Shown piece after piece: positions 21,440 to 22,570 of a stretch of DNA of 47,998 nt (positions are counted from its first letter, which is position 1; each line of letters begins with the position of its first letter). The position numbers and the translations under genes were made by a program. Under the pieces are notes generated by a model that saw nothing but the letters and a program-made list of their open reading frames with translations, was not told the DNA's origin and ran no database searches. Source of the stretch: a virus (taxonomy: Duplodnaviria > Heunggongvirae > Uroviricota > Caudoviricetes); the IMG/VR virus record IMGVR_UViG_2687453188_000002; one strand, given 5' to 3'.

Positions 21440-22246
21440 ATGAAGAAAAAATACGAACTGGGTGTTAAAGGGATAAATAATTATCCGGATAAGATTACTG
21501 TTACTGTGGCACTGGAAATTGGTGGGTATCCGTCACTGTTGTTGCCAGATGTGGCGATTAGTCTTGACCGTACTGAAGGTGCCACGCTGGAGTTTTACGA
21601 AGCTGAGGCGAAAAAGCAGGCGAAGCAGTTTTTCATGGATGTTGCTGCCGGGTTATGTGAAGGGAACGAACCGTTGCCGGAAAAGCGCCCCATAATTTTA
21701 GAGGCGCAGGATGTGTTGATAACCTACAAAGGAAAGCTACCGGGAAGAATTACTGGTTCTCTGAAGATGCCGCCGTCAACACTGCGGTCAGAAAAAGAGG
21801 CGTCTTGTCTGCAGTCTGAGTACTCCATTACGGTTAAAAGTGCCGGAGAGGAAGGAAATAAACGTTATTTTATTGCGTCTGCACCTGATAAAGATCAGGA
21901 ATGGGAGTGTAACCGGCCATCCTTTGTTGTATACGGAGATGGCGGGAAAATAACCATCTCAGAAAATGGGAAATTAACACCGCCATCGCACCAGCATAGT
22001 GAGGCGCTCATTGAATTTGCCATTGATTACCTGAAGAACAATAAAAAGCAGGGGCTGATGAAGCGCATTGGTCGTTGCATGGGATATCTGCAGGTAGCAG
22101 CTGAGATTGAAATGATGGCCAGTGGTGCTGACAATGATGCAGTTGTGCTGGAGGCTCTTCTGCGTGATTTTGATAATACGCCCTTTAAGAAAGCACCTGT
22201 TGACTGGATGCAGCCGGGGATGACTTATCTGAAAGGGCGTATATAA
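21440..22246 (+). CDS. Hypothetical protein inserted between holin and endolysin
   Basis: 268-aa ORF, ATG 4 nt after the holin stop. No recognised motif; the position is atypical for a 21-type lysis cassette. Confidence 0.5.
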   Translation: MKKKYELGVKGINNYPDKITVTVALEIGGYPSLLLPDVAISLDRTEGATLEFYEAEAKKQAKQFFMDVAAGLCEGNEPLPEKRPIILEAQDVLITYKGKLPGRITGSLKMPPSTLRSEKEASCLQSEYSITVKSAGEEGNKRYFIASAPDKDQEWECNRPSFVVYGDGGKITISENGKLTPPSHQHSEALIEFAIDYLKNNKKQGLMKRIGRCMGYLQVAAEIEMMASGADNDAVVLEALLRDFDNTPFKKAPVDWMQPGMTYLKGRI

Positions 22247-22255
22247 GGTGGCTCG

Positions 22256-22570
22256 TTATCTGTTGCTGGATAATCGACTGAAGATGCGTTCTTTTTGTGT
22301 TTTTGCGTAATGATTGTCCCACTCACAATCAAGGTAGCTTAATTCTTCATTCAACCAGTTATTTATATTGGTCTTAATACGCATAAGCATGGGCTGTGTT
22401 AATGCTCTGGCGATAATGCCGAGAGTCACAGGTGTGAGATGTCCATACGGCTCAGCCTGAATGGATTTTACTGCATCGTGTTCTTGTGGGAGGAGTAAGA
22501 GGCACTCTGATTTTACCCGCTCATTTATGGCTTGCAGGCATAAATCATAATTATGTTGATCGTTATGCAT
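22256..22570 (-). CDS. Hypothetical protein, opposite strand within lysis region
   Basis: 104-aa ORF with ATG at 22568-22570, convergent with the preceding gene. Confidence 0.4.
   Translation of the reverse strand: MHNDQHNYDLCLQAINERVKSECLLLLPQEHDAVKSIQAEPYGHLTPVTLGIIARALTQPMLMRIKTNINNWLNEELSYLDCEWDNHYAKTQKERIFSRLSSNR

Follow-up and report, generated by a model that had tools for sequence, protein, structure and literature searches.

A long YdfR-family gene and a convergent small gene between the holin and lysozyme genes of a lambdoid prophage

Introduction

In phage 21 the holin (S) and endolysin (R) genes are contiguous. The stretch of DNA analysed here, IMG/VR virus record IMGVR_UViG_2687453188_000002 (47,998 nucleotides (nt) in full, referred to below as the window), contains a lysis cassette of this kind, in which S and R are separated by two open reading frames (ORFs), one of 268 codons on the + strand and one of 104 codons on the - strand. 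What are these two ORFs, and do they have anything to do with lysis?

The analysis presented here indicates that they are very probably a two-gene accessory module of lambdoid prophages, located in the late operon between an S21-type holin gene and a gene for a signal-arrest-release (SAR) lysozyme. The larger gene encodes a long form of the YdfR family, and the smaller is a real gene that recurs beside it. The arrangement is ordinary, and is not a new kind of lysis system. The genes are already public, as RefSeq 'YdfR family protein' and 'hypothetical protein', as orf5 and orf6 of phage 86, and as PHROGs 1085 and 1853. No paper on DUF1327 itself (the domain that defines the YdfR family), or on phage 86 orf5/orf6, turned up in the literature searched. 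Three further points were not found in that literature: the long form as the conserved state, the annotation of this gene as a pseudogene as a probable artefact, and the small gene that travels with it together with an upstream hairpin.

Organisation of the locus

The genes of the cassette are as follows (aa, amino acids; PGAP, the NCBI Prokaryotic Genome Annotation Pipeline).

21220-21435, + strand: S21-type class II holin, 71 aa (PF04971 'P21 holin S', E=9e-33; PHROG annotation holin; PGAP 'class II holin family protein')
21440-22246, + strand: long-form YdfR-family ORF, 268 aa (ORF map; phrog_1085 over the full length, E=9e-160)
22256-22570, - strand: small ORF, 104 aa, predicted soluble five-helix protein (ORF map; phrog_1853)
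22699-23232, + strand: SAR-type lysozyme R (PF00959, E=3e-25; hydrophobic SAR-like N-terminus MNTKIKYGLSAAVLALIAIGAPAP)
23714-24187: Rz (PF03245)

The holin has the dual-start motif MYQM (pinholin/antiholin) at its N-terminus. Its stop codon, at 21433-21435, is followed by a 4-nt spacer (AGCG) and then by the ATG of the 268-aa ORF at 21440, for which a Shine-Dalgarno sequence, GGGGGAG, lies within the last holin codons. The 268-aa and 104-aa ORFs are convergent, with a tail-to-tail gap of 9 nt. The small ORF, which reads from 22570 to 22256, has a ribosome-binding site (AGAGGA) 7 nt before its ATG, and 128 nt separate it from the lysozyme start. Between the stop of S at 21435 and the start of R at 22699 there are 1263 bp, with the two genes in between. 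The original prediction, made without database searches, described the two ORFs as cargo between a pinholin and a SAR endolysin, the larger being co-transcribed with the holin. All of its coordinates were reproduced, and the ORFs do prove to be real accessory genes, apart from the core S/R/Rz machinery. Co-transcription fits the position of the larger gene, and translational coupling to S is probable, given the Shine-Dalgarno sequence inside S and the 4-nt gap.

A 2.2-kb stretch covering this locus matches the chromosomes of E. coli O104:H4 2011C-3493, C227-11, HUSEC2011 and a number of further strains with 100% identity, and is 97.5% identical to the Shiga toxin 2 (Stx2)-converting phage 86. 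Judged by these matches, the window is a lambdoid prophage from an E. coli strain resembling O104:H4.

The larger protein

The original prediction had recognised no motif in either protein and proposed a homology search. For the larger protein, that search leaves little doubt. DUF1327 (PF07041) matches residues 1-100 with 148.3 bits (cut-off 25), over profile positions 1-88 of 93, making it a clear member of the DUF1327/YdfR family; and PHROG 1085, a 296-position family in the category 'unknown function', covers the whole protein. Over residues 1-77 it is 45% identical to YdfR of E. coli K-12. NCBIfam has no match for either ORF, and Pfam scans of variants and distant members returned DUF1327 alone.

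Genes of this family are usual at this site. In the cryptic prophage Qin of K-12 the order is essQ (holin), 4 nt, ydfR (103 aa), rrrQ (lysozyme), and in BP-4795 it is S, a 114-aa YdfR, R. A DUF1327 gene is found in 101 phage records, including H-19B, YYZ-2008, mEp460 and many Stx1a/Stx2c phages, and DNA of the N-terminal domain is present in 3159 of 5426 complete E. coli genomes (58%), at 6732 places. An interrupted S-R junction is therefore routine in E. coli lambdoid prophages, and is not the unusual feature that had been implied. The uninterrupted junction is also found: the S21-type holin and lysozyme genes are directly adjacent or overlapping in loci L010 and L126 (the L numbers are ours), and DUF1327 is missing from 270 of the 371 phage records that have the same S/R cassette. 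It had been thought possible that a known lysis accessory gene commonly occupies this position. The first half of this is correct, in that the gene is common at the site; no role in lysis is known for it, however.

At 268 aa and with an extra C-terminal domain, the protein exceeds the size of the single-domain YdfR proteins of the K-12 and BP-4795 type (about 100-115 aa). It can be divided into three parts.

21440-21793, + strand: N-terminal DUF1327/YdfR domain, aa 1-118, ending ...LRSEK (PF07041; 45% identity to K-12 YdfR)
21794-21895, + strand: variable middle, aa 119-152 (alignment of 20 family members)
21896-22243, + strand: conserved C-terminal domain, aa 153-268, about 115 aa (alignment with relatives of about 30% identity)

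The N-terminal domain is modelled as three β-strands and a long helix, with a predicted local distance difference test (pLDDT) score of 64-87 for residues 1-70. The middle is replaced or extended in other members by 30-110 aa of coiled-coil-like sequence. In the C-terminal domain the residues H186, G211-R212, L217-Q218, A220-A221, P248, K250, W256, P259-G260 and Y263-L264 are invariant. Full-length homologues of 268, 287, 296 and 325-333 aa have identities of 60-98%, and the name 'YdfR family protein' is given by NCBI to a 98%-identical 268-aa protein as well as to versions of 296, 305 and up to 330 aa.

A profile of the C-terminal domain was searched against 1.84 billion representative proteins and gave 21 clusters, with about ten genuine distant relatives at around 30% identity. 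Most of these share the two-domain layout. Their N-terminal domains align with DUF1327 in hhalign with a probability of 87% (E=4e-6), and the Pfam DUF1327 model itself is matched by 4 of 12 aligned distant members. The C-terminal domain has no relative in Pfam, and a profile search of PDB sequences gave nothing below E=0.27. Two apparent relatives, P0169 (HEAT-like) and P0171 (SRCR-like), were rejected as spurious, being repeat-driven matches of long repeat proteins.

The C-terminal domain also occurs without DUF1327, behind a coiled-coil N-terminus, in proteins of 213 and 222 aa in loci L004 and L005, and of 185 aa in O157:H7 SS17. Its DNA is present in 787 of the 5426 complete E. coli genomes, and the whole 871-bp segment (see below) in 95. 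A scan of genome contigs with the alignment of the long form gave matches confined to Escherichia and Shigella, and a metagenome scan returned copies of E. coli type only.

Is the long ORF a functional gene? It might be a chimeric pseudogene, with the minus-strand ORF a chance frame, the whole being a decaying remnant. This would agree with PGAP, which calls codons 1-112 (21440-21775) a partial pseudogene ('YdfR family protein, incomplete, missing C-terminus') in O104:H4, FDAARGOS_772 and ST131 (loci L001, L006 and L008), and with the visibly mosaic nature of the region, which has deletions at short repeats. However, in these loci the full 268/296-aa ORF is intact, as it is across the different architectures; NCBI itself names the 268-, 296- and 305-aa versions as YdfR family proteins; and the C-terminal domain is kept down to about 30% identity. 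Its 116 codons have a ratio of nonsynonymous to synonymous substitution rates (dN/dS) of 0.13-0.38 in ten pairwise comparisons; four of five control frames give 0.6-6.0, and the fifth, an antisense frame with shared wobble positions, has values similar to those of the domain. From the full-length homologues, the two-domain relatives at about 30% identity and the dN/dS values, we conclude that the long form is, as far as sequence comparison can establish, a genuine protein under purifying selection. The truncated-pseudogene call is probably an artefact. The long two-domain form is probably the ancestral state, and the YdfR of about 100 aa (the N-terminal domain alone, about 103-114 aa) looks like a truncated derivative of it.

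The small convergent gene

The 104-aa protein belongs to PHROG 1853, in the category 'unknown function', and is represented by 35 clusters, all from E. coli. Its reading frame is intact at identities of 68% (L004), 46% (L005) and 49-53% (L077), and homologues at 38-45% identity occupy the same convergent position in L009, L095, L099, L126 and L129. Its dN/dS values (0.47 and 0.2) are lower than those of the other five frames. AlphaFold2 gives a five-helix bundle with a pLDDT of 88 and a predicted template modelling (pTM) score of 0.81. Because the frame is kept at 38-68% identity with a low dN/dS and the model is confident, the ORF is a real gene. The same evidence speaks against its being a chance frame, and together with that on the larger gene makes a decaying remnant highly improbable.

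A profile of the small protein found nothing below E=0.27 among PDB sequences, and a genome-contig scan with this profile found no relative. The minus-strand ORF of PhiR5_1 was considered as a 'DUF1823' protein and rejected, since its score of 15 bits falls short of the cut-off (25) for membership.

The small gene is preceded by a hairpin motif.

22621-22647, - strand: hairpin motif, CAGCCCGCCAG-CGGTAGGACA-CTGGCG and then TTTTT, some 50 nt before the start of the small ORF

Its consensus, CAGCCCGYCAGYG-N4-12-CACTGGYG, is found 50-63 nt upstream of the small gene in both close and distant loci. Of the 99 loci examined, 42 carry the motif ahead of the small ORF, among them L004 and the distant loci L009, L095, L099 and L126. 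The stem has an 8-bp consensus, in which the two variable positions remain G-U or U-G on the minus-strand RNA only. There are no double compensatory changes, so that the structural support is modest; the minimum free energy has z = -1.9, and there is no match in Rfam. The hairpin is possibly a 5'-untranslated region structure or an upstream terminator. A DNA operator was considered and rejected, since the spacing of the arms varies from 21 to 24 nt and the G-U pairs are kept on one RNA strand only. In locus L098, an unrelated DUF1883 gene stands behind the same hairpin in place of the small gene.

Recombination and recurrence of the pair

The homology of the window with BP-4795 and PhiR5_1 ends at about 21775-21797 and resumes at about 22650, some 50 nt before R. 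Within the replaceable segment of about 870 bp lie the final 150 codons of the 268-aa ORF, together with the small ORF on the minus strand. In E. coli prophages the S-R gap is evidently a hot spot of recombination, which shuffles the N-terminal domain, the coiled-coil middle, the C-terminal domain and the small gene. The alignments suggest that the form in the window is the 333-aa type (P0041) minus its coiled-coil middle, lost at a repeated 'SEK' (21794-21810), and that deletions mediated by short repeats produce the length variants of YdfR.

Deletion and replacement at the hot spot are illustrated by locus L077 (positions 3500-3535, minus strand), which represents a widespread E. coli prophage lineage. 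Here a 10-codon ydfR stub, MNKQYELVVK*, directly follows S; unrelated DNA of about 230 bp separates this stub from an intact homologue of the small ORF.

The two ORFs had from the start been treated as a unit, and this is upheld, because the same convergent pair recurs in distant prophages. In five of the eight distant lineages that could be assessed (L009, L095/L096, L099, L126/L127 and L129/L130), a long-YdfR gene is met tail-to-tail by a minus-strand gene whose product has 105-111 aa. In the window, L004, L005 and the distant lineages, the gap between the C-domain gene and the small-ORF homologue is -33 to +19 nt. The distant pairs are located outside the S-R gap, with the Q antiterminator or cargo genes on one side and the holin on the other. 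The cargo includes HicAB, DUF4406 and a pertussis-S1/Scabin-like ADP-ribosyltransferase, and the lysis neighbours include other families, such as PF16080 holins and a GH108 endolysin. These prophages are possibly Salmonella-like: at the DNA level, L095 is best matched by phage Fels-1, with 78% identity over 19% of the query. The recurrent pairing contradicts the idea of the small ORF as a separate addition with no relation to the larger gene.

It may be added that in L095-L098 and L126-L128 the long-YdfR gene lies just downstream of Q, beside a minus-strand HicA/HicB pair. In L126/L127 it is downstream of the pertussis-S1/Scabin-like ADP-ribosyltransferase gene and a 106-aa gene, which are possibly a candidate ArtAB-like toxin.

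Possible functions

Neither protein has a transmembrane segment or a signal peptide: the maximum 19-residue hydropathy is 1.18, compared to 1.7-1.9 for S and R. Both are accordingly predicted by their hydropathy to be soluble and cytoplasmic. The original prediction had proposed a lysis modulator or a factor released on lysis, and had suggested a check for signal peptides or secretion. That check speaks against a released or secreted factor.

A role in lysis deserves more discussion. A YdfR-family protein might tune the timing of lysis or the activation of the endolysin, while the small antisense gene might damp expression of R. The larger gene comes right after S, with its Shine-Dalgarno sequence inside S and only 4 nt between them; the family is always near lysis genes, even in the distant relatives; and the small gene, located shortly before R, runs antisense to the late transcript. 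However, the proteins are soluble, with neither a transmembrane segment nor a signal peptide, whereas known holin regulators are membrane or periplasmic proteins. The distant copies lie upstream of the holin, beside PF16080 holins and a GH108 endolysin, so there is no fixed lysis partner. The same S and R also work without the gene, as in L010 and L126 and in the phage records without DUF1327 described above. In addition, neither protein is classed with lysis functions: both PHROGs are 'unknown function' rather than 'lysis', and no Pfam lysis family matches. The ydfR gene did score for envelope integrity in a genome-wide screen (Paradis-Bleau 2014, as cited in PMC13232886), although the score could be a polar effect on the neighbouring rrrQ. 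On balance we consider a modulator of lysis unlikely.

Another proposal would see the pair as a moron concerned with defence, anti-defence or a toxin-antidote-like function. It would protect the lysogen by superinfection exclusion or abortive infection, or counter a host defence, with the small protein neutralising or regulating the larger. The patchy and mosaic distribution at a recombination hot spot would suit this proposal, as would the movement of the pair as a unit between different late-operon sites and the presence of its distant copies in a cargo region, next to HicAB and the pertussis-S1/Scabin-like ADP-ribosyltransferase gene. The small gene resembles morons expressed in the lysogen, in that it is encoded on the other strand and has a conserved element of its own upstream. 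On the other hand, PADLOC-DB gives no family for either protein, even at E<=1, and no toxin-like or nuclease-like motif was detected in them. The large gene, without a visible promoter and in the late operon, should be silent in the lysogen. Moreover, each gene is often found alone, and such frequent solitary copies argue against strict toxin/antidote dependence: there is no obligate co-occurrence, and no toxin-antitoxin family was matched. An obligate toxin/antidote system is contradicted by these solitary copies, and the broader moron proposal appears to us rather unlikely.

We favour, with low confidence, a different function: the long protein may be a late cytoplasmic accessory factor, whose DUF1327 domain docks on RNase E or RNase G, whose C-terminal domain is the effector or adaptor, and which the small gene restrains. 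The larger gene has no visible promoter of its own and, being probably translationally coupled to S, would be expressed along with the lysis proteins in the late lytic cycle. Its N-terminal domain, as a homologue of K-12 YdfR, would dock on host RNase E (or RNase G). The C-terminal domain would alter how particular transcripts are degraded or processed towards the end of infection. The small gene would be read against the late transcript from its own signals, and would be made mainly when late transcription is off, in lysogeny or early infection. It would be an antagonist or regulator of the larger gene, acting either as a protein or through transcriptional collision and RNAs overlapping at their 3' ends.

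The only experimental information found on the YdfR family is in one report (PMC13232886, 2026). There, K-12 YdfR was recovered in a bacterial two-hybrid screen with RNase G, and was found to bind the catalytic N-terminal half of RNase E more strongly than RNase G, through residues 1-72. Rne1-598 co-purifies with Strep-YdfR, and the full-length interaction was validated. The 45% identity between the window protein and K-12 YdfR falls over this RNase E-interacting region.

There are several points against the RNase E proposal. Some come from the same report: RNA was present in the YdfR eluate, but contamination as its source was not excluded, and overproduction of YdfR changed very few transcripts (PMC13232886). 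The binding is moreover reported for K-12 YdfR only, and its extension to the window protein, with an N-terminal domain 45% identical, is by analogy. Among related phages with the same S and R, many (270 of 371 records) do without the genes, so that any role must be dispensable. No sigma-70 promoter is predicted upstream of the 104-aa ORF in the window. The C-domain gene is present without the small ORF in L006, L007, L008, L010 and L097, and, conversely, 27 of 80 IMG/VR loci have the small gene in the S-R gap together with a ydfR cut to ten codons.

In a bolder version of this proposal, the long YdfR, the small helical protein and the hairpin would be the three parts of a mobile module, not described before, of lambdoid phages of enterobacteria. 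A late effector tethered to RNase E/RNase G through the DUF1327 domain would reprogramme RNA decay as infection ends, a partner made in the lysogen or early in infection would hold it in check, and the YdfR proteins of about 100 aa would be truncated derivatives. We regard this version as doubtful.

Should host RNA decay indeed be the target of the long form and its partner, a very common prophage gene would gain a function. In pathogenic E. coli, the late operon to which the two genes belong drives lysis and, with Stx phages, the release of toxin as well. The two 'hypothetical' ORFs are best studied as a pair, and are a reasonable target for the question of RNase E binding.

The surrounding region

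The order of annotated features around the locus is Q antiterminator, three tRNAs, a SASA esterase of the NanS-p type, the lysis genes and terminase. The esterase is a 617-aa protein (19216-21069) with DUF1737, SASA (sialate O-acetylesterase) and DUF6645 domains; it adjoins the holin upstream, and its NanS-p type is typical of the late regions of Stx phages. Matches above the Rfam gathering score in the window are isrK (9267-9343), a C4 antisense RNA (9365-9452), the three tRNAs (18474-18722) and the small RNA STnc100 (18802-18992). The tRNA/STnc100 region is the slot that is used for stx in Stx phages; no toxin genes are annotated there in this prophage.

The R-Rz junction (23233-23713) is likewise interrupted. 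It contains a terminator-like hairpin on the + strand (23323-23355), followed by two small ORFs called by PGAP, 23389-23571 and 23586-23717. By eye the first of these looks hydrophobic over its C-terminal half and the second over most of its length. In other relatives this junction holds an antirepressor (ant) gene instead.

Comparison with known systems

The cassette as a whole resembles that of phage 21, with a dual-start PF04971 holin, a SAR-like lysozyme and Rz in the same order. It differs in that S and R are split by the 1263 bp that contain the two genes.

The larger gene is most directly compared with K-12 ydfR (b1555) of Qin. The N-terminal 77-100 residues of the proteins are homologous, and the genes occupy an identical site, 4 nt after an S21-type holin gene. 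K-12 YdfR, however, has 103 aa with a short, unrelated helical tail, whereas the window protein has 268 aa, the C-terminal domain and a convergent partner. The closest counterpart of the pair is orf5/orf6 of phage 86 (AB255436 / NC_008464), which has the same order S, orf5, orf6 (minus strand), R, and in which the C-terminal domain and the small protein are 100% identical to those of the window. There is no difference of substance; the phage 86 genes are annotated only as hypothetical or YdfR family.

Proteins that dock on RNase E include the host proteins RapZ and RraA/RraB and, from phages, T7 gp0.7, T4 Srd and phiKZ Dip. The likeness here would be one of proposed mode only, namely a small protein binding to RNase E so as to redirect or inhibit the decay of RNA. 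Like K-12 YdfR, RapZ binds the catalytic N-terminal half of the enzyme (PMC13232886). There is no sequence similarity or detectable similarity of fold between these proteins and those of the window, and expression from the window would be late rather than early.

Finally, the lambdoid morons bor and lom are accessory genes in or near late operons that encode envelope proteins expressed in the lysogen. The pair described here is similar, in that its genes are accessory genes at a late operon, one of them on the opposite strand with its own signals, as in some morons, and are patchily distributed among related phages. In contrast to bor and lom, both of its products are predicted to be cytoplasmic, and the larger gene would depend on late transcription.

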